A stretch of 64,000 nt of DNA from Patescibacteria group bacterium (GTDB taxonomy: Bacteria > Patescibacteriota > Microgenomatia > UBA10105 > UBA927): positions 211,581-275,580 of the forward strand of contig JBMOPU010000012.1 in NCBI GenBank assembly GCA_049322955.1. The letters run 5' to 3'. Shown here one piece after another: positions 1 through 55,724 of this stretch. Below the pieces are notes generated by a model. That model saw only the letters and a list, made by a program, of their open reading frames with translations, searched no databases and was not told where the DNA came from. A program made the position numbers and the translations under genes. The first letter of the stretch is position 1. The number at the start of each line of letters is the position of its first letter.

Positions 1-8
1 CACAGGAA

Positions 9-3000
9 GTGTTGGCCGCCATTGAGGAAACGGGAAAAATAAACGGCAGCATCACCGACGAATCACAGCGGATAATCGTGATTACCAACGAGAATGCCAA
101 ATTAACGCCGTATATCGAAAGCCAACAGCAACTTACCCGCAAGATAGCCGTACTTGAACAGTCGATTGCGGCAGGAAATACGTTACAGGGAAGAGTGGTG
201 GAGTTTGCCAACCGTGTCTTCCGCGGACAAACCACCGCCGAACAGTTAGCAAATAAGCTCAAACCGGCGCCAAAAGCGGCGCTTGTTCGTAAAATTGCAT
301 CGACCGCCCGTCCCGTTGAAACCCACGACTCGTCGAAGGTTACATCACGAATCGTTGAGGGCGAAAACGGCAAACGCTATGCGCAACTTGATGCCGGAGA
401 AGCAGATCGGACTATACAAAACTATGTCAAAGGGGCAAACGAACGCCTGCAAAAAGTGCAGGAAGAATTAGGTTTCCCGCTCTACACGAAAGACACGCCG
501 AATGCACCACAAGATCAGGTGGGGAATATCCTTTCCGCCGCCACCCGCGGGGATCACAGTATGTGGTTAGTTGCCCCCGGGGGAGCGGGTAAAACCGAAA
601 CCTCCGCCATTACCGCCGCGGAACGGTTCCACTATACCAAGCGGAAGCAAGTGTTGGTGGTGGAATCGGAAGAAGTCATCTTGACGCCTGACAAGCAGGC
701 GACGTTTAAGAAAATCTTTGACGCCGAAGGCGTGAAGTACTTTGAACTGACGGATTCCGTCGGCAGTTTGTCTCCGCAGGATTTCGCCAAACTGATGGAA
801 GCGGATGTTGTCATTTCCACCAACAAAATCGCCTACGAATTCATTGCCGATTACGGCAAAGGATCAGCACACCCCGAGTTCCAAGCACAATTTACCGATA
901 ACCTGCAGTCAGGCAACGGCTTCGAGTTTATCGTTGACGAAGTCAAAACCATCTGGCAACCCGCACTTTCGTTCCAGGTATCGGGCGATAGTCAGGTGTA
1001 TGCCAGGACGCCAAACGGGCAACGCGATGTTGCAGTACTGCAGAAGGCATTGGGATGGAATATCGATGAAAGCGGCGTCATTACCCGGGACGCAAACGCA
1101 AACGGCCCGCTCGTCAAACTGCAACGGTCAGCGCTCGCCCTTCTGGACGGGGGAGCACAGAAGCTTCGGGAACTCTTTGATATAGATATATATAGAAACA
1201 ACGGTGAATTAGTACTTCGCCGGGATATCCGTGCAGAAGCATATCGCGATATTCTGCTTGATCAGGCGGCTCAGCATCCTGAGGCAAAGGCCAACATTGA
1301 TGCGATACTGGGCGAGTTTGTTGACGCCGATGCCTTTACCCGCGCGCTTGGAGATCCGAATGCGCGGGCGGCCATTGATGCCTTTGAACAACGTGTCAAC
1401 GGGATTCGGGAAGCAAACTTCACCAAAGATCCCGTAATGACCGGTATCCGCGATACGGTACTGGAAAATATCGGAGTTATGGAAACACTCGGCAAAGTCT
1501 ACGGTGATGTGGTAGGGAACAGTTATGAACCGGTTGCCCGAATGGGAGTGGATGTCGACGGGAGACCCGTTGAAACGCTTACGGTGGTTCCCAAGGATCG
1601 GAACATCTTTGAAGGGAAGCAAATTTCCGACGGTATGCAAAATCTTGTCTATAACTCCGTCGGAAAAGAGCTCTATGCAAAACTTACCGGCAACGATCAG
1701 ATTGCCTCAAACATCAATGACGTGCAGATGTCGACCAACGCGCAGTCGATAACGATTCTTGAAGTGAACTCGTACGCGAAAAGCACCCAAGGCATGTCGC
1801 TTGAAGCAAATGAAGTAGCCCGCGTGTGGAGCGGGGCTGTCCCTGATGCGCAAACCATCGGTTCGGCAGACGCCGTTGCCGAGATGATGTACGGGATGAC
1901 ATTGCCTGACGGTACGGTAGTAGGACCGAAGCGCACCCTTTCCGCGATTCATGAAGTAAACGGTGTTGAATCCGTGGGTACTCGGCTCAAAACGCAGACA
2001 CAGGCGCTTGCCGACGGAGAAGCGGGAGTGATGGGAGTTAATGCATCAAATAACGGCGCGGCAAATCTTGAGGTGCGCAAGGCCTTCCTCAGCAAATACG
2101 GTGATGCCGATATCCAAATAGTACGAAACAGAAACGATCTGCATCAGATTGAATATTCGTTTGGTGAGACAGCCGCCGACGGTGCTTTAGGCATCCATGC
2201 GCGGGCGGCGGTTCGTTTGCATGTCGAGCCGATCGAAGTGAACGGGCAGATGCGCTTCCAGTTGGTGGAAGAAATAATAAGCCGGGTGGTCAACGGAGAC
2301 GGTACCGTGCGATCCGAAAACGTGACGAGCGTACGGAGAATCGGTGCTCCTGCCGAAAAATCCCCGATCACCCTTGCCGATCTTGATGCCGTCAAACTTG
2401 CCGCCAGAGGAGCGCCGCTTTCCGTTGCTCAAGCCGAAAGTATCGCAAAGCTTAAGGGCTTCGGGTTTGAAGCACGACGGGGGTTCTACACCGATTTCTA
2501 TGACAAAGGAGCGGATATCGGCGTCAACCCGCTGTCGTTTAACAACGAATCTCTTCGGGTATTCGGCGATACGGCAAACAGCAGTTCCGAGTGGAATCAG
2601 GCAATCTTGCGTGCCCGCGGTAACGAGGGTGGAACGAAGCTTGTTTACAGTGATTTTTCACCCGATGCGGAGCTTATCGTTATCGGTGGCCGCAATGCTG
2701 AAATGAGCATGATCGACTTTAAAACCATGGCGGAAACAAACGGTTTCCGCGCAACACAGAAACAGGCGACGCAAACGCGTCTCCAGTTTCTTAACGAATT
2801 TATGGCGGAGAAAATCCGCGAGATTACCTCGTTCCTCCCCGAGGGAGAGGCGCGCACGCAGGCGGAATCACTGCTTGCCGGCGGGCAGAAGCGTCTGAAT
2901 GTACGGGTGGGTGCGGTGGAAGTGGATACCAATGTCGAACTTGCCCGGCAGGCGCGCATCGTCCAGGAAACTATCGAGCAGGTGATCAATATGCCCGATG

Positions 3001-30000: not shown

Positions 30001-33000
30001 TTGCGCAACAAATCCTTGCCTTGTCGACACAATTGCTTGATGAGATTAACAACCAGTATCCGAGAGAGATTCCCTGGAGTGATTTTGATACCGTCGGTTC
30101 TATGATCAGTTCTATTGCCGTATTAAATGTCACTCAGTTCCATCGGGTGATGCCCGATAAACGGATAGTTGATCTCATGGGTGAGATATTAACAAAACTT
30201 GACGCCGCCTTGGTTGCGCGAAATAGCAGATTGATCGTGCGGATTCGTCCATCACTTCGTGAAGAAGTAGATATACGGCATCATGAGGAAATTGACTCGG
30301 CGCGACACAAATTCCAAGATATGTTATTTCATACCTTAACCCTCGTTCCGGAAACGGAGCGAGTGGCCTTTTACGAGAAATATATTTTCCCCGGGATGCC
30401 TATATTTGAGGGGCGTATTACGGAAAGCATTGTGAGCATGATGTTCGGTTATATCAACCAGTCTAAGGAGCTTGCAGACATCGGGTTACTTGAACGGTTT
30501 ATCGGAGATATGGGGGAGTATTTGTTCACTGTTTCCGACAATATATATGCGTTTGAGGCCATTGCCACCGCTTACTTGAATACCGTAACCAGCGGATATG
30601 TGTCCGTGAATGATGCACAGGTTAAAAATATTGTTGCCGCAACCAAAGTCATCGAAGCGGCCGAGGATACATTAGACACCGTAAAGTTACGGTGGTACTC
30701 AGATCTATATACGTGGCGGAAAAGACCGGGTATGTACCAAGTCTTTCTGGAGTTATACGGCAAAGATGCCGCAGATGCACTAGTCCATGAGCCGTCCTAT
30801 ATGACAATGGCGCAGTTCAATTCATATCTCAATGTCGTACGTAAAAACGGTATTGACGGGCCGATCACTAAAATGCTTCATGACCTCATGCGTTCGTATG
30901 TATCAGAGAGTCTCGTGCCGAGTTGGATAGACGAAAAGCATAAACCGGCGATAGTCAATTACTTCATGTTGCACCCTGAAGATCGTGCACGGGTGATCGC
31001 AATACTTGCGAATCAGGGCTTCCGCGCCGCTGTAAGCTCCGATCCGGCATTGGAAATGGGCTTAAGCAGTATCTTCCTTTTGGAGAATCGTATTGATCAA
31101 GTTGAGGCGTTGATGCTACAAAACAACTTCACCCGCGAGGCGCTGTTACCGGTATTTCAGGGGGTAACATTTAATTCATATCTGCAAAACAGGCAACAGG
31201 ATTGGCGAGCAGTCTATGATATCACCGGACAAATTACCGGATTACCGGCAAGTACCACGCAGGGTCATGGCGGTATCATACAAAGCATCGGACGAAGAGA
31301 CTATCAAAATTTTGTTGCAGTCATAAAGGTGGGGGATTACGTACGATTTGATATGGCTGATAACGCCTCATACTTGAGTGATGAACATATTGTGCAAGCG
31401 GCACGAGCCCTTATTTCAGCCGGGGTACCGAGAAACTTGTTATGGACGAGGCGTGCCGTTACCGCCGAGGAGAAACCGATAACACTAGAAGACATTGCGT
31501 ATAAAAACGGTTTATCAACTCTATTCTATCCGTATGCCGCCGTATGGGTAGGACAAGATGAAAACGTGCCCATTTCGTGGTCACGCACCACGAGCGGCAA
31601 GCGCGAGCGGAACGTATTTTACCTTGAACAGGGGTTAAATACCGTAACGGTGACCATTCCCGACGGTACGGAAATAGACGTACGAAAGATTGCGCGAATG
31701 CTTATGAAAAGCGGTTTTCCGATTAGTCAGGAAATCACCGTGATAGATGAAAATAAAGGTAACCCGCAGACGTATCCGTACGTACTGAAGCAGGCCGGAG
31801 CATACTATGAAGTCGGCGATGTGTTTGTTGCTCAGGAGACGATGCTAATTCGGGATATCACCCCTGAAACGGTGACATACTCAACCGTTGAGAATGGGAA
31901 AGTAGTCATGCATCAGATGGGTCATGGCGCGTTTGATGCTTCGTTGCTTGATGTCGAGCCATTGAGGATTCCGAAACAGCGCGTAGCATTTACCGATATA
32001 TCTCTTGCATCAAATCCAAATCAGTTTTTGTCGGCATTAACAAGGGATAGTATAGCCGTTATGCGTACGGATGGAGTTGTTGTATTGGCGAATGAAAACA
32101 GAGGGAATCCCATCGGTCACAATACCCTCCGACAGGCGGCATTATTGGAAATTCCCGAGGCAAATCTTCAAATTGTGTACACCCGTGATCAAAATACCAT
32201 GGCAATTTCCGGTGATATTTTGGAAATCCGTCAATTCATGTCGTTACTTCGTAAGGCTGAAAATATTCCGAATATTCGGATGGATATCACCATATTCGGA
32301 TTCGATCCGGGCAATATGAAAGGGCAACTTGCCGATATGCTTGCACACGCCTCGTTGCAGGATATTCCGATTCGTGTACAGACCATAAAGAATGGATCCA
32401 AAAGTGCCATTTTTACCCGATTGGTAACGCCGCTTAACTCGACGGCAGGATTTGTCGGCATTCTTCAAAAGAACGGCGACTTTGTGTGGTCAAGAGAGAC
32501 AAGTTCGTTGGAGTTATTGGAATCCGAATCGCGTATAAATCCCGTCGAGGTTGCCGTACGAATACTTTATTCCCCGGCTGATCATCGTTGGGAGGTTACA
32601 GGTACGGGGGAGGGAATACAAACCTTTATTAATTTTGTCCGCAGTCAGGATCTTCATTTCTCTAATCAATTTACGATTCACTCATCCGATAACGCAGACA
32701 TGAATTTTAACGGCTCACTTCAGGAACTTATGGATTCATCTATCGGGAAAGAACAGACAAGCGCCGCTGAAGCGGCGATAGAGGATGTTCAGGAAATTAT
32801 AATCACAGCGGGAGAAAAGGGGTGTTTCTCCGCAAATCCCTTTGTTTCCCGTGTCTATGCGGCAGATGTTGCCGATAGTGCGGACGAGCTGTTTGAGGGG
32901 AATACCTGTCCGCTTTTCTTACGACCTCCGATGTATGTGCTGAAACAACTTTGGAAATACCGCGGAACGGTCGGAAAGATCCTGTCGCTTGACGCATTTA

Positions 33001-34733
33001 TCCGCTTGGGACTTGGTGCATATCCGTATATTACGAAAGGCTTGGTGTTACCTGCCTACACGGAGCTTCCGCCGCCTCTGGAGCCGGGATTTTGTACCTA
33101 TGGCGGCTGTACAAACGGGTGTGCGACGGGATTTCAATGTAGTGAAACAAGCGGGTGTTGCGAGCCGCAGGAAGGGTATGCGGATTCGATCTGTTCTGCG
33201 GAAGGAAACGCGGAAATACGACGGGTGTTGTCCGGTTCTCTGTATGGTTCTACCGAAACCGTCGGATGTGATGAGCGGGGGTGTGCTAACGGGAAGTGTA
33301 TAGGATACGATTCGGAACAGAAGGATGCCCCGCTTTGCAGTACGCTTCCTCCCGATGAAGACTGGCAGGTTTTAGGGTTTGAGGATGATATCTACTTACC
33401 CGCACAATCCTGCAGAAACGCTGAAGGGGAAATCGAATGGCGATTAGGCATACTTACAAGTGCAAAGGGGGATTATGCATGCAGTGATGACAGGAAATCT
33501 ATCGTCAGTGCTACTACCGGGGAGGCAATCTGGCAATGCGGTGAATTTACCGAGTGTGACGCGTTGGACGGTAACTCTAACTGTATTCCCAAATGGTTTT
33601 TGGCGGATTATATGTGGTCTTCCGAATGCAACCCGTTGCAGACCCGGAATGACGGGTTTGTATGCACCCGTGAGGGGCTTCGGTGTACTCCGGGTCAGAC
33701 GTTACCCAAAACAAACGACATTCGTTGCGACCGCGTTTGCGAGGACGGAACAACGGAGAATACCCCCGTCAAATGGCCGATAGATTGCGCTCCGTATAAA
33801 GAAGATTATTCAGATATTTATTGTGGAACATCTGAATCGGGAAAGGCCGCGGTGTTATATAAAACCATGACACCACTTATAAGTGGCGACGAGCTGTCTC
33901 AGGAGGGGGGAGTTATTCAGATGACTGAGTGTGAAACTAACAGATGTGTGAGTGGTGCGTGCGCCGCATCAGCGAAGGATTCCTGTAGCCCTTATGAAGA
34001 AGGTAAGAACGCGATGAAAGAGGACGGATCCTGTTTATTGACCTGTCGTGACGGAAAGTATGAAGAAACAAGCGTGTGCGGGAAGGATATCAAAATACTT
34101 TCGTATAACAATATCGGGAGACAAAAAATACTTGAGGCATTGTCGTTACTTCCCGAGCATATTTTAGAAGGCGCCAATTATAATACCCTGCGGCATCTAT
34201 GGTATCCGAGGGTAAATGCAACCGGGCATACGGCAGTGGGAACCGCATACTCAATAATCGATCTTGCCAATACCAATACCATGGATTATGGATTCGCCGG
34301 TCAGACGGCAGAAGTGGTGATTCACGAATACATGCATGAATGGGCAACGACGCAAGCCGCTTGGTATCCGCATAATTGGCCGCTTGCGGACATTCTTAAC
34401 GTTGCGCCGCTTGTCACCAATTTCTCCCAACAAGGAATCGCGCCGGCACCCGCAGACTATATGAAAACGATAGGGTGTAAAAAAGAAGACGGGAAATTCT
34501 CCTACGGGTATCAGCCTGTTACCGGATATTCGGGCTTGCCTGTTAATGAAGTTGAATGCGGTGAGGATTTTGCCGATTCGGCCGCCTGGTATGTGACCCG
34601 TGCATGCGACTTGTTGAACGGGGGAGAGTCGGGAGACTATGAGGCAGGGCAAGTCCGGTACGATTACTTCAAGGACACGATCTTTGAGGGGAGAGAATAT
34701 TTACCTCCCGGCGGCTGCGGAAAAGGAGGATAA
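9..34733 (+). CDS. Giant multidomain protein (>=11,574 aa), very probably 5'-truncated by the window edge. Contains P-loop, FHA x4, GGDEF-like, two HExxH motifs, internal TM cluster, Cys-rich C-terminus
   Basis: One uninterrupted frame of 34,725 nt ending at TAA 34731-34733. Recognizable motifs lie in this same frame along its whole length. The ORF track begins at GTG nt 9 with AGGAA directly abutting (no spacer) and only 2 codons of upstream window, so the true start is likely upstream. Antisense ORFs inside are short and junk-like. Confidence 0.85.
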   Translation: MLAAIEETGKINGSITDESQRIIVITNENAKLTPYIESQQQLTRKIAVLEQSIAAGNTLQGRVVEFANRVFRGQTTAEQLANKLKPAPKAALVRKIASTARPVETHDSSKVTSRIVEGENGKRYAQLDAGEADRTIQNYVKGANERLQKVQEELGFPLYTKDTPNAPQDQVGNILSAATRGDHSMWLVAPGGAGKTETSAITAAERFHYTKRKQVLVVESEEVILTPDKQATFKKIFDAEGVKYFELTDSVGSLSPQDFAKLMEADVVISTNKIAYEFIADYGKGSAHPEFQAQFTDNLQSGNGFEFIVDEVKTIWQPALSFQVSGDSQVYARTPNGQRDVAVLQKALGWNIDESGVITRDANANGPLVKLQRSALALLDGGAQKLRELFDIDIYRNNGELVLRRDIRAEAYRDILLDQAAQHPEAKANIDAILGEFVDADAFTRALGDPNARAAIDAFEQRVNGIREANFTKDPVMTGIRDTVLENIGVMETLGKVYGDVVGNSYEPVARMGVDVDGRPVETLTVVPKDRNIFEGKQISDGMQNLVYNSVGKELYAKLTGNDQIASNINDVQMSTNAQSITILEVNSYAKSTQGMSLEANEVARVWSGAVPDAQTIGSADAVAEMMYGMTLPDGTVVGPKRTLSAIHEVNGVESVGTRLKTQTQALADGEAGVMGVNASNNGAANLEVRKAFLSKYGDADIQIVRNRNDLHQIEYSFGETAADGALGIHARAAVRLHVEPIEVNGQMRFQLVEEIISRVVNGDGTVRSENVTSVRRIGAPAEKSPITLADLDAVKLAARGAPLSVAQAESIAKLKGFGFEARRGFYTDFYDKGADIGVNPLSFNNESLRVFGDTANSSSEWNQAILRARGNEGGTKLVYSDFSPDAELIVIGGRNAEMSMIDFKTMAETNGFRATQKQATQTRLQFLNEFMAEKIREITSFLPEGEARTQAESLLAGGQKRLNVRVGAVEVDTNVELARQARIVQETIEQVINMPDVQKLANGGFLGLGRNRELSRLVGNLTRANGRSIASQIPEALDFSKPVDASAKPYTEATNVYEVIKGMEAHTYVNPADDLAGNVLPKVIRGINEVKTSFTATNTPQDIQRLTKVAADAVPDAIRIATRVNQGDSMTPTESYTVELARNTAVAMQDGVTQLEARRGTLPRLTQSVQQPNTLRAGDVIVGKDKNGVEGAQTILLGMRVSWTDASGDHEDLINGESTVITFPAGTTSIRIQTSGSRSEVELSGPDTQLVSDQNKNAPSFEATYQLNNEIAQTQAAIQKTLGNATVDTLTAALDREAKRKVQNELARLGLGNLPDSETDAIATALRAYESAVARVISQLNDRALEGDPQTRIDRETTTEKAALLRALNALLIKHAGTVKDAKIAKAFTNLGIAQNANVNQTLSFSEGGSVRVVDETHKGLLVDAARKQTAPTVTSIAVRLFGTYTDNALSYQKKQINRVIASEKPNIFVRAISGILPALRGIARIPASFMSATRFGNLVDRVRNFFGRTPVTTPESPQVAQGIIDGLIAGVKNGAYNDAYVALTNARNQGKTDDATKLETALRESIAGRLSQALGTTIAVHHDMVTALLAYEGGFVQAASTWNETPEGLTSLTLFAEAIQQEGGMAVLQQGAIDAVNAFRQATTLTRDITPEAIIGVVTQPVVQATYTLLADANAATLEAAAQEKANTPVERLKAALAKKDYLTAYTLFNELRANAANHLDEIAEADTALRRDVATRLGTQLNVTLDPTTIEIARIVDYEASIIELTNRSISENSVNNYEEYFDAAHRDSEVVAALADAEAAFDTLAAPLGVTRNSYNDGLRKTIDPMMHSVWDALKLDEKIAARIQAEEDARYDIGTVRGWVNILRNTFGTAYRYTFGANPIPGIRALLQMAVNRNRDLTPADRIEELIAWAAFRIAPAASGNPVGILTSAIFWAWDGIRIASAPLRSVWSNLVHPELVTTAVQPLAGPDIAPDAGIPARGVRRIIYNSNIFTNGLTGAEVVKRVPIYLVTRVLLLASTGLGGWTGPIAGYVFYQDMTFALPAQTRINIANGSREGFFEDLWNAHPFFGIGHKPWKPMYIVRDPFIFFARYSIPVAGQILFMHDMWRAVSWPVRAIIRATQTPSIPTVTPDAEAFWGNDGTITILGISVPRTWINATPNDRPLMYVATRVLSLGALTSYDWHRFIDEGGWRWLFAQPADHWTRRHDNAWYRYVANPRLWGGGIGETAAFIGTRVILNASFGGFGLVYDAFRAVRWVRESFAGGYIPQGAATATVTSTQSQNSAQTNGITLVSAGLYGDQQFKNGGIVKITYTEQDGSQHTVDGTLRLWSRDVKDSIWYVVLPDGRRADIRQSKIVKLTENITKNNNQSTTQTGTTTQQTATQQKRIYRTGGIYTFLNASPWGQGWGGLFRYGLTRYGGSMLMTSVPVVGPFIGPAYTIALGLYDTYRVLDWLATSGKFPSFTGKRATQTSQISQTGLTLHALPEGMVLLGGGRYRNNSTKQYIVRNAETGKTRTLRAGKEITLRNEIIELSDGTMVWFGEKGSVMRFTLTPSTDTPQDIIKANTAFDGGLLKSGVTGETLFDPGKIGPLAQSLRAEINGKSYTIHMPQDMKEAARELQDRRVFAAVTIAALLQAEEYLGVSNNLPTEILAVPDAASPSQAGLAGFFGSNKTKNGMFVVLQKNTADYMGIVAHEFTHETLGSSPLADFTEGVAVHIQRRIAPSSPAATHFYTKKLDPKLLHYNEAYVPATATELFGNDVNKEYQVAYSWSYVTGAFLLQAIAELYGDEGMVKFMTAYELSKDRYYHGGYELNIADKKTGKTVRNRDAIRTLLIDTFGVRETNRIIGMQEAALKGYGERFLKEEAKKQNANIVAELTIGRLAANDYQTPTSNDTISRRHAVVTRTSRGGLFIADVGSQNGTWVEHNGVRELLTQEARRLVAGDTVLLGDQNRGEIYTVTQNTAGELTLKKGDTDLMLRAKTPAQSAASAARPSARYKPNGCSSCRAELIVFEKIMERVLGAAQAETPNIAEAKRLIALAKGYFLRYTMANTEFQSVAKATVEVAEAQLIKNSAEQDDAVVALSDAILRMEQRTDVPEELVSEWDEAIAYLKERREEVKGMAVIEATEVERIRAQVTSGFYTAQAALGVYVPVGLRNEGDQTLASFGITRPTDAQIVEQAVASIVPAAVDAVRIAQPDLAQENPEGFIDTTMQFIQQTAEYQELLSGRSPAVIISSIRAALAVVVRNSVNATTEGQAVTVFASPQEAIEKLPLQKTTKDTLLLVVTNENEITDKRLVKLRDSSAYYPPKPGNAALNGATTSWNWYSEFTQSAAWDSVYQEVRRIIASGESDVVKAVQLEALMNVTERETVQKAEDGVARLRRAVRFWIDGFTNVLTEERLTQVLDDLSFGKVYQSKTAGGEVQQVILVTPQTFGLSVMSALDRAKVYIASSGSNAINRVSTMFFAEPPIEVTTNENGSEVLEHVRKNPKSIILKTRLPSGETVTPEEKLKGYIDAIETKGARKVSFTVISKTGVRDQKVLSQLAEYVATWNTGHPGDIVRLTVDVVQEFGRDSDIEVFKWLLLPGVHSLVHSGSKAAGGPAHAGFIWVTAYGQTLDGANVPSLAQNIESLTFAEQLRVVGNVEAIIAMFNLPSEYRLDGEIARAVAEEADDFNRSLGLTPLWEEAIVSDTTQPKGDDGKYPEKKVLLEQKNNESIRSYRIPLVYRDGKLVPEVDAKTLLRTWEESGYIMGGILEETPDLGPILRYGISTQLMRQLLNEGITTPEDARARVRALFAEKQAELANKYTEQRRANEVPVTVQTQEQQGYNREQFTAAHPWLAAFGSIFNTTFNAMFYAGIVFLVVTSASVIAPLFAPLIVPGFASIFTAAWIFITAALPYYYVFKDSPSYDINRVLYAATVRFDSTKTGTLTVETPQAKTAGISQEARSNFEANHPVRYTVARILDALLPGLMIGLLVLYMVSSGLGLVTLYAAAFAPYISASALTVILSILSVLPLLAVHKDIAATTQQLHDSIYRIMMPVASDGEAENDRMPLPTPPIQVKQVELQPEGQTFRMGNDLVDPLEEIFTEMVQKNHPEWDGKWETVRTFFMRYLWDKHFTVSYTHDGTKYTYTTSDAKETFVITDVEEFIDALFTFDSLISANKEKSQWIENLTVQTIWERATSYDFAHPTEFLRRYTQQFIAGQIPFVDWVTVGTITTRQGDEQVRVRSVEAKHSYMESPYILEISSVKDNADPNDPANQLHSLHYGIDSATQVSLYTVQLSSINDASNGKFAESEVSISIRMNRIRSYLEELGLLTNASFTVPDSDVDWLDLERTLAALAPAVAARVADTPDTDKQYATLTRLNDEIKRVQTLVGELIVKRKEIPQLEKRVAALKRYNSMVDGGGASMMSLVTALATLKRLGYTTVRIPVLLKYVQHVGVNTAEIPALLRSDWERKIKSLTSFTGIKQVSTDDPDVVMLDLSAWDFDLTKNNTRTRDLAPFLQDVKNMPVKEAPLNFDGKPSSNGLFAFDQGFVRFMGMIDALKAFIGRLMRSVPFVRTSTTPVEEELNMPLPTPPIRPAEGQNTDAEAGLPARTDELIAEIPASPGTGFFASSMDFLIYQGQQADAGTRFAITMNRRNGKPSGVWVMNAYPTDGQTVVLNGRQVQQGDAVYLVDNSVFTLGNREYRVSVVGDSLRIVADATVDVASNNLATVGDAVRSMRDELLGLLTDDLAESLRDATIQDVSIVDLIEYAVPIITGSDEYQRITNDRTEAEKEEVIRLLRSMLPSFIIEQVPLASPELLATRQANRRVEATLSNPGGDTLINEKIPLEIAAIQTVTDVIAAQLALPDSARFAVMQVLSRIPDVVEFLTRRLFDSLHTTARDPLRLPGETMAKFGEGEADELRRVGIGAQRVWSSIALPLFTSRGYPVVARLDVRNLRGANDVAGQGGYTPLGDYLLRKFADSVFEALGPDYEVIRVGGDEYMILARPGAATDGVQQRIEAVLATTHMLYKTPQGIENQPIRVEFKAPDELLPIEERNHGGDWLTLMEKGIYTDDATIDAGSDFHPMLAYTAQILTSIRVPLAGELTASQIASVHGVIKRIMAVLLFDDVLRDSARGMQESFRAKNPRATVAVYEDVQDWMEAVRVEMPLGFKIVRFDQPGILKMLNSMSSLYGDQMIVRQFEKLARFAFERLGVTNVRVYRRANELYLAVDPSVTIDTEQMQDALRGYGDNAAGLFKELAVVSQSEVTLVPTGVDGRGASENVRQLNRALSELANGIVTHTNASILDEYVRKPNNILTRIRNRFARSREVTSETLADRQFIVNYLNPFDKRGIDRIQHIGATPEEIESLKRFYVQIEPGAGSVVQDDQAYATIITLLTRINRDNNWFIKTWNTLIERIKFANQEVSRIGIVAPGTRALFSMFGGTDHSVNITNSARKEQHTAIATLLSRQFTTDKSLQVQLIAHLSNAKNAFIMDFIADHLMDGYFQESRKYINARKLPGVGRELQTDQDQIVELHNNTESPQSVWSIHAIPFLQGLGAQVMTVFDVEPLPDTKLDSATQTALRDLELRRVVTLIHNLGGGNYQIVRLNDNRFAVMMIGTVSDSEKWELENRLQRLETLVARPDAQGNVAFNRSRSHVFPFIPVTLKSEEELRREGEEFAAGINLFTPMTKKLLYLATKGFAYQQDEEIAKKQDDVLTNPARRVKLRAQNAGYAQVLATLEQDTILYGQADFVSYISSLTAAMASDDVLDGTAAKLEAKYNKKDPDVKVRVFADLPSTLKAARAQYGDEFSVIEVNVDETLRLVGKAHGYEQGDILIQTLFEKLGHHIFTELRLQNMIVYRESATKYYVVLNVHYPLDTKRMQSKLNAEYSPYRVGEKEYFVLPVVAMKHIGLNPSVTVGEAEQQFAAALIELQKYSETKMRAAIREHFVKETTLPPFHWAWLISYLRSGGNAEEVLAKFSNNARDISAAAQVTTVRRDGNYSDIRRVITKQTSEDLETLREISMEETSNWSLWYQMNNEFKGLVNVIGELFLGGMEVIFSKFPPKPYLRPNVAEVGKDNEDAKQNSFEAQLSTVSQRRSEKRAVAQVLPVGIDPDISEDIVGIKSMAAHLAYAYGKDYIQPYPGGQRLLAHYDPNMPGARYPGHRAIPVSVAFYTPAEENRWTRFLDFLAKLVYINRFTGTWEVMEITPAEIGSAMAEYEAAMHTVYKSKAAATEARNTAYQAGIEKLEAILSDKHLAAKTNPVAVSQSRPSNIVFAVVRGTTGSLAQIHDWFGKVGAPILMAFNDSREPVVIDDHVVVDGNPGLDVRDNIMRQLGSLVSEVHQVPQIIENKKDQRKTIRAEDLPRNIQYETIMMAVAYAMRKQGFPSLGTTVATGSLDDRVTLGAVSLREPVKPQAIRVAIEQAHSEYGLLDRLAHIYRHVVPAWLESFITALSEVLPITRDFVKIAGKGPYVTFIRRDYIGDPGLLTTVLSDIPFDKNVPTVVILQDKNTGQSRIVLQGVANDAVREQMLQDIFEELHQLEQGITRTANDWPKPKSQIVRQFESLAMYYRRFTGRSVQRASSSFENAKIVTKSTAYTTTTKELATVTDTTTLPGVTITIAGDTLTMTNEVMTLILAKDMASPASLTPTEVAQLRETINTYEQNKRALANVPDTSTGLSVLNLIMPSLFDTNNSARETTNIVSLQIFYASQGKLKAFSLAPRDDTIVDGVTTDAEVGIVGNADKYKVMDVRNGKMLVVRNGLENDLTDTQKNALEDLFVNAKTVEEANEQIQTLFQQWFPNASRSDQFVTLITIPAQETVERIQSGAVQLRLEPDTAILRDAPVPTREARQRDPGLESVAYPVTFRIDESGAIVATWANNAPITINGEEPDGTSAKLFVGDVIRFGNDGMAYEILVDDTNHAVLSVQSHPEYTVTLPRTVIPEYGLINMSRSTMVVDGEINLAPLDMLWPTNTANPLFIELPEERGTAQTNGRPVVVRKRADIRLANGQESWLRAIVLPYPNEVAPAMKANVWYQVKNQAGDIVGSVRRITANKFMVTYTREPEQSQTRSLPFLRPSLPDQLRTDHQRAVTTTRTSPNYAAVATTRRVGQMVHATGQVNHTGDNARRFGATGTPVNWSVKLRESDIPYFDSLSETERLNWITRRIQEADEIVYAQHGFQADGRVYAKPMQEILLPYATDGRRQVGVAPSLMGANGTYIEKQPYHYEDALQQSMHFYTALDGFFDFRHKRVTFIGQSTGARIVLELAGLLSEQQQLPKDVRFELVAPYILGRKQLKIFDGGWGLGFLYGFVNNRNVPMPVRRTFLLLARLPIFIVTTPDRVIVNNRLSGLTGNPAIADASIIHRENQQDVAYSTRWTDVILGVPAIDWEALPEAVRLAPIRFHLPQKENIVDQKQTEDFIEEKNLRSQQGFAVVTYGEGHYPIDKDWQRVGAHLNGIAQTAQEPETLQPMRRFGFEVEMPRLVERGEDRQPQPTPGPGVHIGTKQQGTNRFVEPNKTLFSQFDVDHASVQPEGEGLTITNRSPKGTWINGVLLSVGESKAIAFGDEVVFGQNPNDPEETELWRYRVDMSPTGNVALVRFSPVAQDNEADILLPIVLPNGAKENFAKKAALFAPTDSFRLASIAELPWQSDERIIIEYRTANGTRASLSVRATTSISDILDRLPFGAANDMRILKKVTKGYVQIGTMERIPTGWVKVFGIEGNVPAVVETGVPEPAAVAAEKAAERLITFVGGVNHTAYPTEQDVKTAFAETLGIDASYIVVQAITPTDYAISIDAPSLVFSGNVIERDKGVRFFHIDTIAVPAEFRKNGETAMRFRAIEGIIRSLFSVDRAEAVNQPTSEAAKNFWKSVGFAPQTNSALNQTYKKDYRTVSATSLYAFDQGFALFMKMTDAIGDWIKSRWQTEQTNSGVSVPVRVAQTEVNVNANTANPISQVVVGLPIEDRAKFLNEMGLREEQVIPIKTKVISLHPDTADEMKQAIERGEYSFIVIPVALNASLADKLASISKEEHLYALPTQGRAIIAAATPQMIDGVTYYDINVKGVGNTGNSQWGGFISDGELVPTGGGRNISGYTERSWEMAATEKAREFGLRSPVVIAITEPEELIYEGEVQPLQNILQKNTSLPDAFKPIQILVAWRNATRIIDLFGGFTQNSELNPFSMVMGSSERYPAITDALPPGFDEPLFTKVFGSLKKTAEPHLLIAAKRLSIELGKNLSIRDYLTEVDKLLIQNFRLMVRHNILQHNLTAQNISLAGEFGDWGDAFSFNGQVLTPEQEQKVRISDFHSFYEAYVMLHLAGGDRNIPTISEFYRTVIAQTARNTAFYPATFDRFINAGVNENSVEGKATIARNRANVQRYAQKMSRIRNAYFDTPTHRILQVIESIGKRMNPLWLSIRGTINKLIADARSDVRLQQNRFRNWLDVMRLYAEPYPQNDSLVQIAEEIVREIDGSFPNTAGSVRSLAAQNNLSELTIYLEERVDQLEDAAGPKLGRYLRNRIDRLHFLATPAPLWRQIINRVLRWWGNQQVVYFAEPTQTRFWNMVEEKINSLVGRNTNDVSLSPQEAEQRADAYFASEDARDMASTISLHIEAMQYQERWSDTGMPEEIFRDLINAALAKEQEYREFPTQVKLLINTRVEAFVAGRVNNMPDLRPFTTRERLAYLFRSIFNPVLNRLDIYRSRYYRDRVTIASLFALQPAIDDREADAYSKAAVERLKNARTTTQQLVLDQHKQKIERRNFDFTARDNAFRRAKNRELNAQLYLWWRRPFLQLSKASAAIKLYRAGVSNPIALLTHLERTGSDDIFSYDFKENGEQITGLDYARWIRANTYSEIPYIRVTERLSQLFTFPSLFGFVIPDIKDELNELGSYSDEIFQTVLAELDRYPFLSNSFTSPYTYRNNDKYGSGHIASPSFIFFLQLLQQGGLSENQRRIFGMAQLISDYGFGDVLPEMGNLEQNEQLLTDLLTVIENIYAHKDMTTLPGFGGGNRRDYNMERNLGHLIKTGDLTILATLIKSGYVVGFQTWKDLHESYTEESFKNTRLEQKLEAAKMLIDPITGLVDISKIRSSTSQAPEIDTVDRDAAFLQIQPELNAFIDGLPINDRDYLIRNYSEFTKEDSKWVPTELKAKINAISDGDNISYREIKQYTIRRLMTVNSVVQERLFRTAFQQAEISQQDMEAIAETFDEADRDFWQMVFSYPRENRTRLVMFKDSFLGSTKEKMVSQGSYGRMLADYILQLDRLANTTMFELERFLLNPNLELRKEIIGFASDNNSTLRDAKRTLLIRLHDRNLKPEIIQYLLGYIQKNVQRDARLDYIRGLTNVLNAKGMEGTDLADWRLLIEDYIPTFGFLAQENMIIIHRHLANGRPLRGPHLGPYLSEPGTLQVTETGRKGIDQLSAAVKRIRNRILSERTIFPEDVESNVGKALVGAITGFSTATWGHGSSRGLDIGEFVREFKAQEAAGNIPKLDEAFAEEAEFKVRFSKKVEYSQETTSVYQGFVSLITSAMNGGKSEATVFASNKANILSLLDKKIVDLTAAIAAKPSAKDFIEKQIAQYQTLRTAVDGATDTMTLLPVLVSTRGIKVNQVEGLPQVIQMMMFDRVFRLYPQLAEDFNQLFTASEITVGSLAKMIELRNVFIKDHLLEKVEANAKKQLLDIINTKELEDALKLTQESENQSVVVRVFATKGILGELAGDIGNACYTKQCNIMSQPITGLIFTTGEGEERVLIGSALVLENTVEGKPVRILRALNPREEFAEQFNMNDFSNGVLAYLEHVTGKIGAKVVAPVRVAGAMSNRPTVPTALINFIDGNPSILDKREDFNGYDITNGTLPMASKPEELQGFALGTAKVTQTAEEVQQSKGIIETLTQAFRQVNLGSCFSMSPLVQRVYAADDESGNTCSPFFRAPWRVVWDWIRNTLGANSKNAPAVIGKGRHTEAELVILRDRVMSAFPDLWKNEDAILTELPQETLNDLREIILSDGFTEDFRNSVATEISNNVVRWDSPLAQQILALSTQLLDEINNQYPREIPWSDFDTVGSMISSIAVLNVTQFHRVMPDKRIVDLMGEILTKLDAALVARNSRLIVRIRPSLREEVDIRHHEEIDSARHKFQDMLFHTLTLVPETERVAFYEKYIFPGMPIFEGRITESIVSMMFGYINQSKELADIGLLERFIGDMGEYLFTVSDNIYAFEAIATAYLNTVTSGYVSVNDAQVKNIVAATKVIEAAEDTLDTVKLRWYSDLYTWRKRPGMYQVFLELYGKDAADALVHEPSYMTMAQFNSYLNVVRKNGIDGPITKMLHDLMRSYVSESLVPSWIDEKHKPAIVNYFMLHPEDRARVIAILANQGFRAAVSSDPALEMGLSSIFLLENRIDQVEALMLQNNFTREALLPVFQGVTFNSYLQNRQQDWRAVYDITGQITGLPASTTQGHGGIIQSIGRRDYQNFVAVIKVGDYVRFDMADNASYLSDEHIVQAARALISAGVPRNLLWTRRAVTAEEKPITLEDIAYKNGLSTLFYPYAAVWVGQDENVPISWSRTTSGKRERNVFYLEQGLNTVTVTIPDGTEIDVRKIARMLMKSGFPISQEITVIDENKGNPQTYPYVLKQAGAYYEVGDVFVAQETMLIRDITPETVTYSTVENGKVVMHQMGHGAFDASLLDVEPLRIPKQRVAFTDISLASNPNQFLSALTRDSIAVMRTDGVVVLANENRGNPIGHNTLRQAALLEIPEANLQIVYTRDQNTMAISGDILEIRQFMSLLRKAENIPNIRMDITIFGFDPGNMKGQLADMLAHASLQDIPIRVQTIKNGSKSAIFTRLVTPLNSTAGFVGILQKNGDFVWSRETSSLELLESESRINPVEVAVRILYSPADHRWEVTGTGEGIQTFINFVRSQDLHFSNQFTIHSSDNADMNFNGSLQELMDSSIGKEQTSAAEAAIEDVQEIIITAGEKGCFSANPFVSRVYAADVADSADELFEGNTCPLFLRPPMYVLKQLWKYRGTVGKILSLDAFIRLGLGAYPYITKGLVLPAYTELPPPLEPGFCTYGGCTNGCATGFQCSETSGCCEPQEGYADSICSAEGNAEIRRVLSGSLYGSTETVGCDERGCANGKCIGYDSEQKDAPLCSTLPPDEDWQVLGFEDDIYLPAQSCRNAEGEIEWRLGILTSAKGDYACSDDRKSIVSATTGEAIWQCGEFTECDALDGNSNCIPKWFLADYMWSSECNPLQTRNDGFVCTREGLRCTPGQTLPKTNDIRCDRVCEDGTTENTPVKWPIDCAPYKEDYSDIYCGTSESGKAAVLYKTMTPLISGDELSQEGGVIQMTECETNRCVSGACAASAKDSCSPYEEGKNAMKEDGSCLLTCRDGKYEETSVCGKDIKILSYNNIGRQKILEALSLLPEHILEGANYNTLRHLWYPRVNATGHTAVGTAYSIIDLANTNTMDYGFAGQTAEVVIHEYMHEWATTQAAWYPHNWPLADILNVAPLVTNFSQQGIAPAPADYMKTIGCKKEDGKFSYGYQPVTGYSGLPVNEVECGEDFADSAAWYVTRACDLLNGGESGDYEAGQVRYDYFKDTIFEGREYLPPGGCGKGG
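571..950 (+). other. P-loop NTPase region: Walker A LVAPGGAGKTETS (nt ~571-600) and Walker-B-like FEFIVDEV (nt 921-944) in the giant ORF
   Basis: GxxGxGK[T] motif read directly. A hydrophobic-DE motif follows ~115 aa downstream. Confidence 0.45.
8091..8108 (+). other. HExxH zinc-metallopeptidase-like motif (VAHEFTHETLG) inside the giant ORF
   Basis: Codons cat gaa ttc acg cac gaa = HEFTHE, in frame. Confidence 0.4.
8620..8870 (+). other. FHA domain 1 (…ISRRHAVVTRTSRGGLFIADVGSQNGTWVEHNGV…LVAGDTVLLGD)
   Basis: Classic FHA signature: SR.HA, D.GS.NGT.VNG, GD.v.lG. Confidence 0.65.
11500..12060 (+). other. Cluster of ~5-6 predicted transmembrane helices in the middle of the giant protein
   Basis: Long hydrophobic runs: AAFGSIFNTTFNAMFYAGIVFLVVTSASVIAPLFAPLIVPGFASIFTAAWIFITAALPYYYVF and LLPGLMIGLLVLYMVSSGLGLVTLYAAAFAPYISASALTVILSILSVLPLLAV. 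Confidence 0.55.
12156..12179 (+). repeat. 24-nt near-identical direct repeat, copy 1 (atgccgttgccgacgccgccaatt, encodes MPLPTPPI)
   Basis: Matches nt 13713-13736 at 23/24 positions. Confidence 0.7.
13581..13631 (+). repeat. Protein-level repeated module, copy 1 (GLFAFDQGFVRFMGMIDA)
   Basis: Paired with copy 2 at nt 23639-23690 (SLYAFDQGFALFMKMTDA). Identical AFDQGF..FM.M.DA core, 15/18 nt identity in the core. Confidence 0.6.
13713..13736 (+). repeat. 24-nt near-identical direct repeat, copy 2 (atgccgttgccgacgccgccgatt, encodes MPLPTPPI)
   Basis: Matches nt 12156-12179 at 23/24 positions. Both copies are preceded by an acidic stretch (ENDR / EEELN). Confidence 0.7.
13890..14075 (+). other. 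FHA-like module 2 (…TVVLNGRQVQQGDAVYLVDNSVFTLGNREYRV)
   Basis: C-terminal FHA pattern NG..v..GD.v.l.d...f.lG. The N-terminal half is weak. Confidence 0.35.
14735..15030 (+). other. GGDEF-type diguanylate-cyclase-like domain with GGDEY variant (GGDEY codons 14943-14957)
   Basis: ARLDVRNLRGANDVAGQGGYTPLGDYLLRKFADSVFEAL…EVIRVGGDEYMILAR matches the GGDEF family pattern DlD.FK.iND..GH..GD.vL…R.GGDEF.vl. Confidence 0.6.
17395..17670 (+). other. Degenerate second GGDEF-like module (…VNVDETLRLVGKAHGYEQGDILIQTLFEKL…YRVGEKEYFVL)
   Basis: Same spacing and pattern as the GGDEF core, but GGDEF is replaced by GEKEY. Likely a non-catalytic or allosteric copy. Confidence 0.35.
20548..20705 (+). other. FHA-like module 3 (…WANNAPITINGEEPDGTSAKLFVGDVIRFGNDGMAYEI)
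   Basis: N.tfiNG..…L..GD.I.fG pattern. Confidence 0.4.
22500..22690 (+). other. FHA domain 4 (FDVDHASVQPEGEGLTITNRSPKGTWINGVLLSVGESKAIAFGDEVVFG)
   Basis: HA-containing first block, then S.NGTwiNG, then GDEVvFG. Confidence 0.6.
23639..23690 (+). repeat. Protein-level repeated module, copy 2 (SLYAFDQGFALFMKMTDA)
   Basis: See copy 1. The copies are ~10 kb apart. Confidence 0.6.
29612..29720 (+). repeat. Cys-containing repeated module, copy 1 (GSCFSMSPLVQRVYAADDESGNTCSPFFRAPW)
   Basis: Matches copy 2 at 32818-32935 (GCFSANPFVSRVYAADVADS…GNTCPLFLRPP). Shared nt blocks tgtttctcc and gtctatgcggc. Confidence 0.6.
32818..32935 (+). repeat. Cys-containing repeated module, copy 2
   Basis: See copy 1. 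The two copies bracket a ~3.2-kb (~1070-aa) unit. Confidence 0.6.
33094..34100 (+). other. Cysteine-rich C-terminal domain (~40 Cys in ~330 aa) of the giant protein
   Basis: CTYGGCTNGCATGFQCSETSGCCEPQ…GCDERGCANGKC…CGK. Dense CxnC spacing read directly. Confidence 0.7.
34323..34337 (+). other. Second HExxH motif (VVIHEYMHEW), ~130 aa from the C-terminus
   Basis: Codons cac gaa tac atg cat = HEYMH, in frame. Confidence 0.4.
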
Positions 34734-51394: not shown

Positions 51395-51424
51395 TGTAGG
51401 GGAAATACCGGTAATGTTAAATTG

Positions 51425-54534: not shown

Positions 54535-54563
54535 TTGTCAAATGTACCCGCACTCGTTATGAT
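54535..54563 (+). promoter_or_regulatory. Sigma70-like promoter candidate upstream of the aminotransferase gene
   Basis: TTGTCA (54535-54540), 17 nt spacer, TATGAT (54558-54563), then GGAGG RBS (54568-54572) and ATG 54580. Confidence 0.3.
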
Positions 54564-54579
54564 CTCCTGGAGGTTATCT

Positions 54580-55716: not shown

Positions 55717-55724
55717 GATCAGCC

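Follow-up and report, generated by a model that had tools for sequence, protein, structure and literature searches.

A giant, repeat-free gene product with a putative SecA-like ATPase region in a Microgenomates-group Patescibacteria bacterium

Introduction

Giant membrane proteins are known from Omnitrophota and Actinobacteriota, where they carry divergent SecA_DEAD and preprotein-binding domains and no scaffold/wing domain; GGDEF domains were reported in the actinobacterial giants, and the authors proposed self-export, attachment to and degradation of prey surfaces as the roles of such proteins (bioRxiv 10.1101/2023.11.21.568195). In that work (West-Roberts et al. 2023, bioRxiv 10.1101/2023.11.21.568195) the threshold for "giant" was set at more than 30,000 amino acids (aa). 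Over 3,600 proteins of at least 10 thousand amino acids (kaa) and a 20-protein cluster with SecA_DEAD architecture have also been reported, the mean number of membrane helices at this size being 22 (10.64898/2026.06.07.730766). Giant multi-domain membrane proteins with SecA-like ATPases are thus already known, and proteins of more than 10 kaa are known in the thousands. This study deals with a giant gene on a 64,000-nucleotide (nt) stretch of DNA, here referred to as the window, which comprises positions 211,581 to 275,580 of contig JBMOPU010000012.1 (assembly GCA_049322955.1). The gene fills the first 34.7 kb of the window and belongs to a Microgenomates-group Patescibacteria bacterium.

The Patescibacteria, also called the candidate phyla radiation (CPR), possess genomes of about 1 Mb and a lifestyle that is believed to involve attachment to host cells; little is known of the molecules behind this contact. 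No paper was found in the literature on a giant protein of the present family or on any giant protein in Microgenomates-group CPR. Of interest here are the phylum, the share of roughly 4% that one gene takes of a contig of about 1 Mb, the total absence of repeats, and how much of the protein is free of recognisable domains.

Results and discussion

A continuous gene under purifying selection

On the plus strand, the frame that opens at nt 3 of the window runs through 11,576 sense codons to a TAA at 34731-34733; the runner-up stop-free stretch found anywhere in the window by the same six-frame scan has 765 codons. Since about 3 of the 64 codons are stops, a run of this length is effectively impossible by chance. 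The listing of open reading frames (ORFs) gives the same track as 9..34733, i.e., 11,574 aa with GTG as the first codon. A model-generated annotation made from the letters alone (the original prediction) had read it as one continuous ORF of at least 11,574 codons that extends beyond the upstream edge and encodes more than 11.5 kaa, and the data agree on each count. On an identical contig from the Logan collection (SRR32167788_6211, 48,343 nt), gene calling gives 13,322 aa, and about 1 kb of contig remains beyond the start; some 1,746 N-terminal codons therefore lie outside the window, with the start about 5.2 kb upstream. The residues at the opening of the window (QEVLAAIE) are internal in the relatives, where 1,992 (L005), 1,781 (L006) and 1,026 (L007) open codons precede them. 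Because these homologous frames continue upstream, the GTG at nt 9 is internal and not a start. Residue numbers in this text follow the window, full-protein numbering being approximately 1,746 higher. With about 13,300 codons (ca. 40 kb), the full gene takes up about 4% of the 990,597-bp contig, which is probably close to the whole genome. The amino-acid composition of the product is ordinary except for cysteine.

Four other assemblies of the locus were located through a look-up of the flanking PIG-L protein, and all agree with the window: the Logan contig with the 13,322-aa call at 100% identity across 17,285 nt, SRR29476910_1862 and SRR34420820 both at 99.98%, and JGI 3300009873 at 99.2%. 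The original prediction had asked whether the frame could be an assembly chimera of repeats. Tandem Repeats Finder detected no tandem repeats in window positions 1-34800, BLASTP of the protein against itself gave no matches, and only three weak, distant internal paralogies emerged from phmmer comparisons of 400-aa windows. The sole dispersed DNA repeat in the gene is an imperfect 50-nt pair (13581-13630 and 23640-23689, 74% identity). In the absence of repeats, collapsed or chimeric repeats cannot account for the open frame. At the protein level, the 50-nt pair corresponds to a conserved peptide, L(F/Y)AFDQGF..FM.M.DA, located at aa 4527 and aa 7880, and it sits inside a weak paralogy between aa 4498-4549 and aa 7855-7902.

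The coding-like composition claimed in the original prediction is seen throughout, as the GC content of the three codon positions follows the order GC1 > GC3 > GC2 in every 500-codon block. Ratios of nonsynonymous to synonymous substitution rates (dN/dS, Nei-Gojobori method) are low wherever a relative allows comparison. Against L005 (CAYUZE010000006.1), they are 0.13 for 2,279 aligned codons in aa 1-2290 (88% aa identity) and 0.11 for aa 3252-3730; against L061 (WBZO01005381.1, 90% nt identity), 0.11 for aa 3261-4237 and 0.09 for aa 4238-7264; and against the JGI contig L004, 0.16 for the last 524 codons. For approximately aa 7265-10925, the open frame and the composition are the sole evidence of coding, because no relative covers that stretch. 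The gene is continuous and under purifying selection, and the first 34.7 kb of the window are the larger part of one real, intact, non-repetitive chromosomal gene.

It is hardly credible that the long frame is an artefact, whether an assembly chimera, a set of genes fused by sequencing errors or a decaying pseudogene. Two observations in relatives could be taken to point that way: in L061 a 1-nt deletion breaks the frame at L061:3218 (window nt 12713), and in L006 the frame has a stop followed by a restart. The L061 lesion amounts to one base missing from a run of two Gs in another strain, and besides the frameshift at aa 4238 that contig retains 979 + 3,027 open codons; we read it as a strain- or assembly-specific lesion, be it a sequencing error or real, that is uninformative on the window. 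On the other side stand the 11,576 codons without a single stop, the agreement among independent assemblies, and the flanking proteins on the 990,597-bp NCBI contig. The lack of repeats rules out a collapsed-repeat artefact, and the open frame together with the low dN/dS rules out a pseudogene.

Architecture of the protein

The features of the gene and its product are collected in Table 1. More than 90% of the chain has no match in Pfam, NCBIfam, PHROGs or PDB sequences, and the roughly 6,000 residues between the GGDEF-like modules and the Cys-rich tail are without any recognisable domain.

Table 1. Positions of the features of the giant gene and its product (residues in window numbering)
Feature	Residues (aa)	Position (nt)	Strand	Evidence
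Giant gene, 3' 87%		3..34733	+	11,576 codons + TAA; stop-free frame, 13,322-aa call, dN/dS, codon-position GC
SF2-type P-loop ATPase region, probably SecA-like	140-900	420..2702	+	Best-conserved part of the protein
Walker A, GGAGKT	193-198	579..596	+	GG.GKT core invariant in the family alignment
Walker B / "DEV" motif, VDEVKT, then ..VSG	311-316	933..950	+	Resembles SecA stretch
First HExxH module, HEFTHE	2697-2702 (motif)	7800..8582 (HEFTH, 8091-8105)	+	Motif scan; conservation in L006
FHA domain (phosphothreonine-binding)	2880-2951	8640..8855	+	PF00498, 47.2 bits, E = 3e-12; NCBIfam FHA models
Membrane-helix cluster, 4-6 helices	3846-3903 and 3963-4019	11538..12059	+	Hydropathy scan
GGDEF-like module 1	4853-5296	14559..15890	+	Pfam-matching stretch aa 4933-5013
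GGDEF-like module 2	5461-5936	16383..17810	+	Diverged paralogue of module 1, phmmer E = 8e-15
Second, degenerate FHA-like stretch	7511-7555	22533..22667	+	Pfam FHA 18.6 bits, cut-off 20.7
Cys-pair module, copy 1 (Cys 9874/9895)	9850-9915	29550..29747	+	Paralogous to aa 10917-10991, phmmer E = 2e-6
Cys-pair module, copy 2 (Cys 10941/10969)	10917-10991	32751..32975	+	phmmer; Cys positions
Cys-rich C-terminal region with second HExxH, HEYMHE (aa 11441)	11028-11576	33084..34730 (HEYMH, 34323-34337)	+	Composition

The original prediction had listed a P-loop, multiple FHA domains, GGDEF, two HExxH motifs, a transmembrane cluster and a Cys-rich tail, and most of these were recovered as described. "Multiple FHA" holds for the first domain, which retains the GR...SRxH...NGT residues and is conserved in L006; the second stretch stays below the Pfam cut-off. 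GGDEF was likewise recovered in part. Module 1 carries the motif RVGGDEYMIL (aa 4979-4988), and the NCBIfam diguanylate-cyclase models DgcN and DgcS weakly match this stretch, as does PHROG 11823, but PF00990 scores 17.2 bits, under its cut-off of 23.8. A second palm-like stretch, degenerate in sequence (VYRRANELY), closes module 1, and in module 2 the motif itself is degenerate (RLNDNRF). In the membrane cluster, Kyte-Doolittle means over 19 residues reach 1.5-2.4 and charged residues are absent.

Both HExxH motifs are conserved in relatives, and neither region matches a peptidase family in a relaxed Pfam scan, even at E = 5. The first module, about 50% identical in L006 with the pattern HE(F/Y)THE..GSSPL.DFTEG, is possibly a zincin-like domain, judged from this motif. 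The second lies in the Cys-rich tail, for which neither Pfam nor NCBIfam gave a family; over the C-terminal 650 residues, identity to a Gottesmanbacteria fragment (P0002) is about 81%, and the HExxH and most of the cysteines are kept in that fragment. When the HExxH, Cys-rich, CxxC and membrane-helix segments were scanned with Pfam at relaxed settings, nothing but noise appeared.

The distribution of cysteine along the chain is striking, being very poor in the middle and rich at both ends. The last 576 residues contain 34 Cys, spaced in a way that resembles disulfide-bonded proteins. The first 11,000 residues of the window contain only 8, which all fall in close pairs, compared with a mean Cys content of 0.69% in the 23 neighbouring genes (binomial P = 3e-23). 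The other end can be seen in L005, where the part upstream of the window equivalent consists of a basic segment, one strong membrane helix and Pro/Thr-rich linkers. About 30 Cys fall in the first 1,000 residues of that open frame, mostly in the first 750, and are followed by a long stretch that appears helical by eye, with weakly hydrophobic Ala/Gly/Ser-rich segments. No Pfam or NCBIfam domain was found in these N-terminal 1,992 aa of L005.

The ATPase region and its relation to SecA

Residues 140-900, with 46-92% identity across five lineages the most conserved part of the protein, are certainly an SF2-type P-loop ATPase. When an 801-aa segment was scanned alone, DEAD (PF00270) scored 27.9 bits (cut-off 26) and ResIII (PF04851) 24.4 bits (cut-off 22.5), with ResIII matching 5/5 and DEAD 4/5 family members. 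The VDEV of Walker B (aa 311-314) is invariant across the family, and the Ala at aa 195 of Walker A is Gly in L007. An invariant RARGNEGG stretch is a candidate motif VI of the second RecA-like lobe; no helicase_C model matches that lobe, which is also poorly modelled by AlphaFold.

On balance, the ATPase domain appears to be SecA-derived, with a likelihood of about two in three. Read by eye, the giant and SecA are collinear over GAGKT (GEGKT in SecA), STN.IAYEFIADY (GTNNEFGFDYLRD in SecA), VDEVKTIW..VSG (the SecA stretch after Walker B), VVPKDRNIFEGKQISDGMQNLV (a SecA signature stretch), SITILE..GMS (SITFQN..GMTGT), KGADIG (RGTDI) and LRARGNEGG (LRGRSGRQGD). In other words, both share Walker A and B, TN.EF..DY after motif Ia and VDEV...(I/V)SG after Walker B, followed in the same order by a long insertion, a hairpin and an SDG(L/M)(H/Q) motif, and RGTDI-like and RxRGxxG-like motifs in the second lobe. 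For a profile comparison, 29 diverse SecAs (40-61% identical to E. coli SecA) were recruited from IMG/VR contigs via the codon pattern of DEARTPLII; an enterobacterial SecA alignment used as query on viral contigs found no related loci. With hhalign, aa 194-283 of the family aligned with SecA from Walker A through TNNEFGFDYLRD at a score of 33.4, which was reached in 0/150 column shuffles (mean 19.1, standard deviation 3.1, maximum 29.5). With depth-matched profiles of five sequences, SecA scored 34.7 over 85 columns, and five E. coli DEAD-box proteins 23.9 over 8 columns, i.e., Walker A only. SecA and DEAD-box helicases score 83 against each other in the same procedure, so that the ATPase of the giant diverges more from both than they do from each other.

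The differences from SecA and SecA2 are considerable. A canonical SecA has about 800-950 aa in the order NBD1-PPXD-NBD2-HSD-HWD, whereas the ATPase of the giant is embedded some 1,900 residues into a 13-kaa chain. Neither PF07516 nor any other SecA scaffold/wing (C-terminal) domain was found anywhere in the giant protein, and the C-terminal linker domain is also lacking. Its insertion is predicted to be helical (AlphaFold, mean pLDDT 53), unlike the typical preprotein-crosslinking domain.

A number of results weigh against a SecA origin, and so against the reading put forward below. The hhalign probability against the diverse SecA profile is just 7-14%. After NBD1, the best local matches of three sub-regions do fall, in support of such an origin, in order on the SecA motifs IVDefTGR..GRRxSDGLHQA, RGTDI and QLRGRxGRQG, but each has P = 0.2-0.56 and is singly not significant. 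Pfam SecA_DEAD (PF07517), SecA_PP_bind and SecA_SW gave no match in the ATPase segment even at E = 10, and no NCBIfam SecA model matches the giant protein. Nothing significant was obtained with the family profile or with three chunks of the protein against PDB sequences, with hhalign against E. coli SecA alone, or with Smith-Waterman alignment to SecA with shuffles (z <= 2.1), and with an enterobacterial SecA HMM, built from sequences at least 90% identical to that of E. coli, the score of the giant did not exceed that of shuffled sequences. AlphaFold models of aa 100-900 are of low confidence (pLDDT 43 with a 2-sequence alignment and 53 with five sequences). The top Foldseek matches in the PDB, none at E <= 1e-3, are RIG-I, LlaGI, PriA and DEAD-box domain 1 rather than SecA.

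Relatives and modular evolution

The family is rare and, as far as labels go, restricted to the Gottesman-/Woesebacteria branch within the CPR. When the ATPase profile was run exhaustively with HMMER against 1.84 billion cluster representatives, it matched 5 proteins, each of them a fragment of this family. A genome scan added four related loci and a metagenome scan one, and homology searches with a 1,200-aa N-terminal and a 900-aa C-terminal query gave one close fragment each. L006, L008, P0001 and P0002 are labelled Candidatus Gottesmanbacteria and L007 Woesebacteria; the closest relative, L005, carries the label "uncultured Gammaproteobacteria", probably through an error in binning or labelling. 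In public databases, the relatives are named only "DEAD/DEAH box helicase family protein, partial" or "hypothetical protein". The statement in the original prediction that the protein belongs to no described family therefore holds at the level of sequence families; the general kind has been described (bioRxiv 10.1101/2023.11.21.568195), so that the novelty is smaller than was implied.

Searches of phages and plasmids (tblastn) with the giant protein gave no match, and IMG/VR contained no relatives. PHROGs had no match except for the GGDEF stretch. These null searches and the chromosomal flanks rule out a phage or plasmid origin.

The family evolves by modules. In L005, an unrelated cassette of 1,787 aa (L005:16561-21921) with hydrophobic helices of its own substitutes for aa 2291-3251 of the window, which hold the first HExxH and the FHA domain; the cassette has no Pfam or NCBIfam match. 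Synonymous divergence (dS) between the window (3-6872) and L005 (9685-16560) is a mosaic, with 0.5-0.85 in the first 1,000 codons, 0.06 in codons 1001-1250 and more than 3 in codons 1751-2000. Past aa ~8000 (window 24000-33000), GC3 is 0.43-0.50, compared with 0.53-0.58 before, and overall GC is 0.45-0.48 as opposed to about 0.52, the flanking genes having about 0.50-0.53. The mosaic dS and the drop in GC3 suggest recombination, and the C-terminal third of the gene may have had a different history of recombination or transfer.

Proposed role and its weak points

We propose, at about even odds (a probability of roughly 0.5), that the protein represents a variant, in Patescibacteria, of the kind of giant membrane protein with a SecA-like ATPase that is known from Omnitrophota and Actinobacteriota, and that it probably serves host-cell contact. 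The likeness is drawn from the descriptions of those proteins and not from sequence homology. Features shared with them are a single polypeptide exceeding 10 kaa and made by an ultra-small bacterium that is presumed to be host-dependent, membrane helices, a (here putatively) SecA-like ATPase without scaffold/wing, modules that are at least GGDEF-like, a length that is mostly free of domains, and a nearby peptidoglycan hydrolase gene, in this case a LysM-M23 gene upstream in L005. Their ATPase was defined by a Pfam SecA_DEAD match, which was not detected here, and this protein comes from Patescibacteria of the Gottesman-/Woesebacteria group. It has about 5-7 helices (the cluster plus the N-terminal anchor seen in relatives) vs. 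a mean of 22, and no dockerin, glycosyl hydrolase, C39 peptidase, NUDIX or methyltransferase domain. At 13.3 kaa, it falls within the 10-kaa tier and under the 30-kaa threshold.

In the proposed layout, a signal-anchor helix with Pro/Thr-rich and Cys-rich segments (seen in relatives only) would be followed by the ATPase of about 750 residues, the HExxH and FHA modules, the cluster of 4-6 membrane helices, the GGDEF-like modules, some 6,000 domain-free residues and the Cys-rich tail with the second HExxH. The ATPase would lie on the cytoplasmic face, and ATP would power the export, insertion or remodelling of the protein's own extracytoplasmic parts, i.e., the Cys-rich ends and possibly the long Cys-free stretch, which would contact the host-cell surface. 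The FHA and GGDEF-like modules would couple this activity to Ser/Thr phosphorylation and nucleotide signalling, and processing of the polypeptide or of the host surface may fall to the HExxH modules. ATPase, FHA domain, membrane helices and cysteine distribution are present in the protein; we infer from them the SecA-type subclass, the topology, self-export and the role in host contact. ATP-, phosphothreonine- and nucleotide-dependent modules are expected to face the cytoplasm, and the Pro/Thr-linked, Cys-rich N-terminal part is expected outside the cell, as is, judging by its cysteine spacing, the C-terminal tail.

The topology is the main weakness of this proposal. The hydropathy scan gave no strongly hydrophobic segment from aa 4019 to the C-terminus, and an external tail therefore requires either an odd number of helices in the cluster or post-translational export; in the former case the GGDEF-like modules would come to lie outside the cell. 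L006 (JACRMP010000002.1, 70% identical) has no equivalent of aa 3285-4598, including the membrane cluster, and is split into at least two ORFs by a TAA with an ATG 4 nt on, preceded by AAAGAG (L006:17100-17300). The restart corresponds to window aa ~5241, a module boundary just past the second palm-like stretch. It follows from these differences that covalent continuity and this particular membrane cluster are not obligatory.

Going further, Microgenomates-group CPR may encode a complete, self-exporting single-polypeptide machine for cell contact, in which a motor derived from SecA would pass about 7,500 Cys-free residues, together with an end rich in disulfides and tipped with a metalloprotease, through the protein's own membrane-helix cluster to the host, under the control of FHA and nucleotide-cyclase modules and with exchange of cassettes between lineages. 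This more ambitious version is quite unlikely to be correct in full. If it were, it would represent a new single-gene export and attachment apparatus, independent of known secretion systems and, by descent, of the Omnitrophota giants.

Alternative explanations

The main rival, though an unlikely one, is a polyprotein or polymorphic effector, i.e., a carrier of many modules that is cut by its own HExxH proteases and/or delivered unfolded into the host in the manner of MARTX toxins. On this view, the site of action of the ATPase, FHA and GGDEF-like modules would be a cytoplasm, either that of the producer or that of the host, and they would not work as one machine. With MARTX, polymorphic toxins and polyvalent effectors the protein does share a very long, Cys-poor multi-enzyme chain, putative internal protease motifs and module swaps. 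Extreme Cys depletion with paired cysteines, as for proteins that travel unfolded, agrees with delivery of this kind, as do the conserved HExxH motifs, the cassette replacement in L005, the mosaic dS (0.06 to >3) that suggests recombination, and the natural split of L006 at a module boundary, so that modules can work as separate proteins; the authors of the Omnitrophota study likewise suggested proteolytic processing (bioRxiv 10.1101/2023.11.21.568195). Nevertheless, the giant is without RTX or other repeats, known effectors, or toxin, cysteine protease domain (CPD) or immunity parts; Pfam, NCBIfam and PHROGs returned no match to a toxin, peptidase, secretion signal or immunity gene, and no secretion system was seen in the neighbourhood. 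The dN/dS is uniformly low (~0.1) and not diversifying, the C-terminus is conserved (81% to P0002), unlike the hypervariable tips of polymorphic toxins, and an internal membrane-helix cluster is a further difference. From polyvalent proteins of phages and conjugative elements it differs in its chromosomal flanks, not being on a phage or plasmid, and in having none of the phage-family domains (MuF, methylase, SNF2).

There are two other readings. In one, the cytoplasmic-type domains are degenerate structural relics of a giant surface fibre or adhesin, nearly all of which lies outside past an N-terminal anchor. The anchor and Pro/Thr-rich linkers of relatives fit this, as do the near-absence of Cys, as in Gram-positive surface proteins, the degeneracy of most GGDEF-like and one FHA-like stretch, the neighbouring genes for cell-envelope glycans, and the fact that giant proteins elsewhere are frequently adhesins. 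Repetitive adhesins (SiiE, LapA/Bap-type proteins and the 36,805-aa protein of Chlorobium chlorochromatii) are comparable in size class, low Cys and a likely role at a symbiotic cell-cell interface, but they are wholly extracellular and built of tandem Ig-like, cadherin-like or beta-helix repeats. The present protein has no repeats and none of these or RTX domains, which rules out a repetitive adhesin. A fibre in general is quite improbable: the ATPase is the most conserved region and keeps Walker A and B, which argues for a working, hence cytoplasmic, domain; the first FHA retains its phosphothreonine-binding residues; the multi-helix membrane cluster is internal; and no sortase or other wall-anchor signal was seen at the C-terminus when the sequence was read by eye. 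In the other reading, the ATPase is an ordinary nucleic-acid helicase or translocase of a DNA/RNA system, e.g., a defence or mobile-element polyvalent protein. DEAD and ResIII are indeed the sole above-threshold Pfam matches of the region, RIG-I, the Type ISP restriction enzyme LlaGI and PriA are the best weak Foldseek matches, and NCBI names the relatives as helicases. This is very unlikely, since the depth-matched profiles favour SecA, Pfam and NCBIfam scans of the 11.6 kaa found no nuclease, methylase or other nucleic-acid domain, the searches for phage, plasmid and IMG/VR relatives and PHROG matches were empty but for the GGDEF stretch, and the flanks are housekeeping and envelope genes.

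One gene that takes up such a share of the contig and is kept intact under strong purifying selection marks a protein central to the biology of the organism. If its ATPase is truly SecA-derived, the theme of a giant protein with its own export motor would reach, beyond Omnitrophota and Actinobacteriota, a third, unrelated group of ultra-small bacteria and point to convergent or ancient solutions for episymbiosis. The family is tractable, as it offers a motor of about 750 residues with conserved Walker motifs, cassette-swapped variants and one split-gene relative. Such natural variants could be used to ask why these proteins are single chains.

Genomic neighbourhood

The proteins flanking the giant gene are MFZ5534785-MFZ5534803 (locus tags ACOY3M_013xx) of a metagenome-assembled genome named "Patescibacteria group bacterium", and the bacterium that carries the gene belongs to the Microgenomates group of the Patescibacteria (CPR). 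In L005, a Rho termination factor and a cell-wall hydrolase with LysM and peptidase M23 domains are encoded immediately upstream of it (80-2999); the hydrolase might act in concert with the giant. Neither a tRNA nor an Rfam element was found.

The remainder of the window (34745-64000) is a cell-envelope glycosylation island that is convergent with the giant gene and 11 nt away from it. It encodes a PIG-L deacetylase, an NPCBM protein, PMT_2 and YfhO-like GT-C enzymes, several GT2s, a DegT aminotransferase, a hexapeptide transferase, methyltransferases, a pyridoxal phosphate (PLP) decarboxylase and a GDSL lipase. Pfam matches are lacking for at least five of its ORFs, which are 530-760 aa long (35552-37843, 40615-42213, 44387-46081, 49745-51394 and 51311-52957). 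The start codon of 49745-51394, on the minus strand, is uncertain, as the ORF overlaps both of its neighbours. Likewise, the listed GT2 ORF 55383-56777 (+) overlaps the DegT gene 54535-55716 (+) by 334 nt; its Pfam domain begins at residue 118, and the true GT2 start is probably well downstream of 55383.

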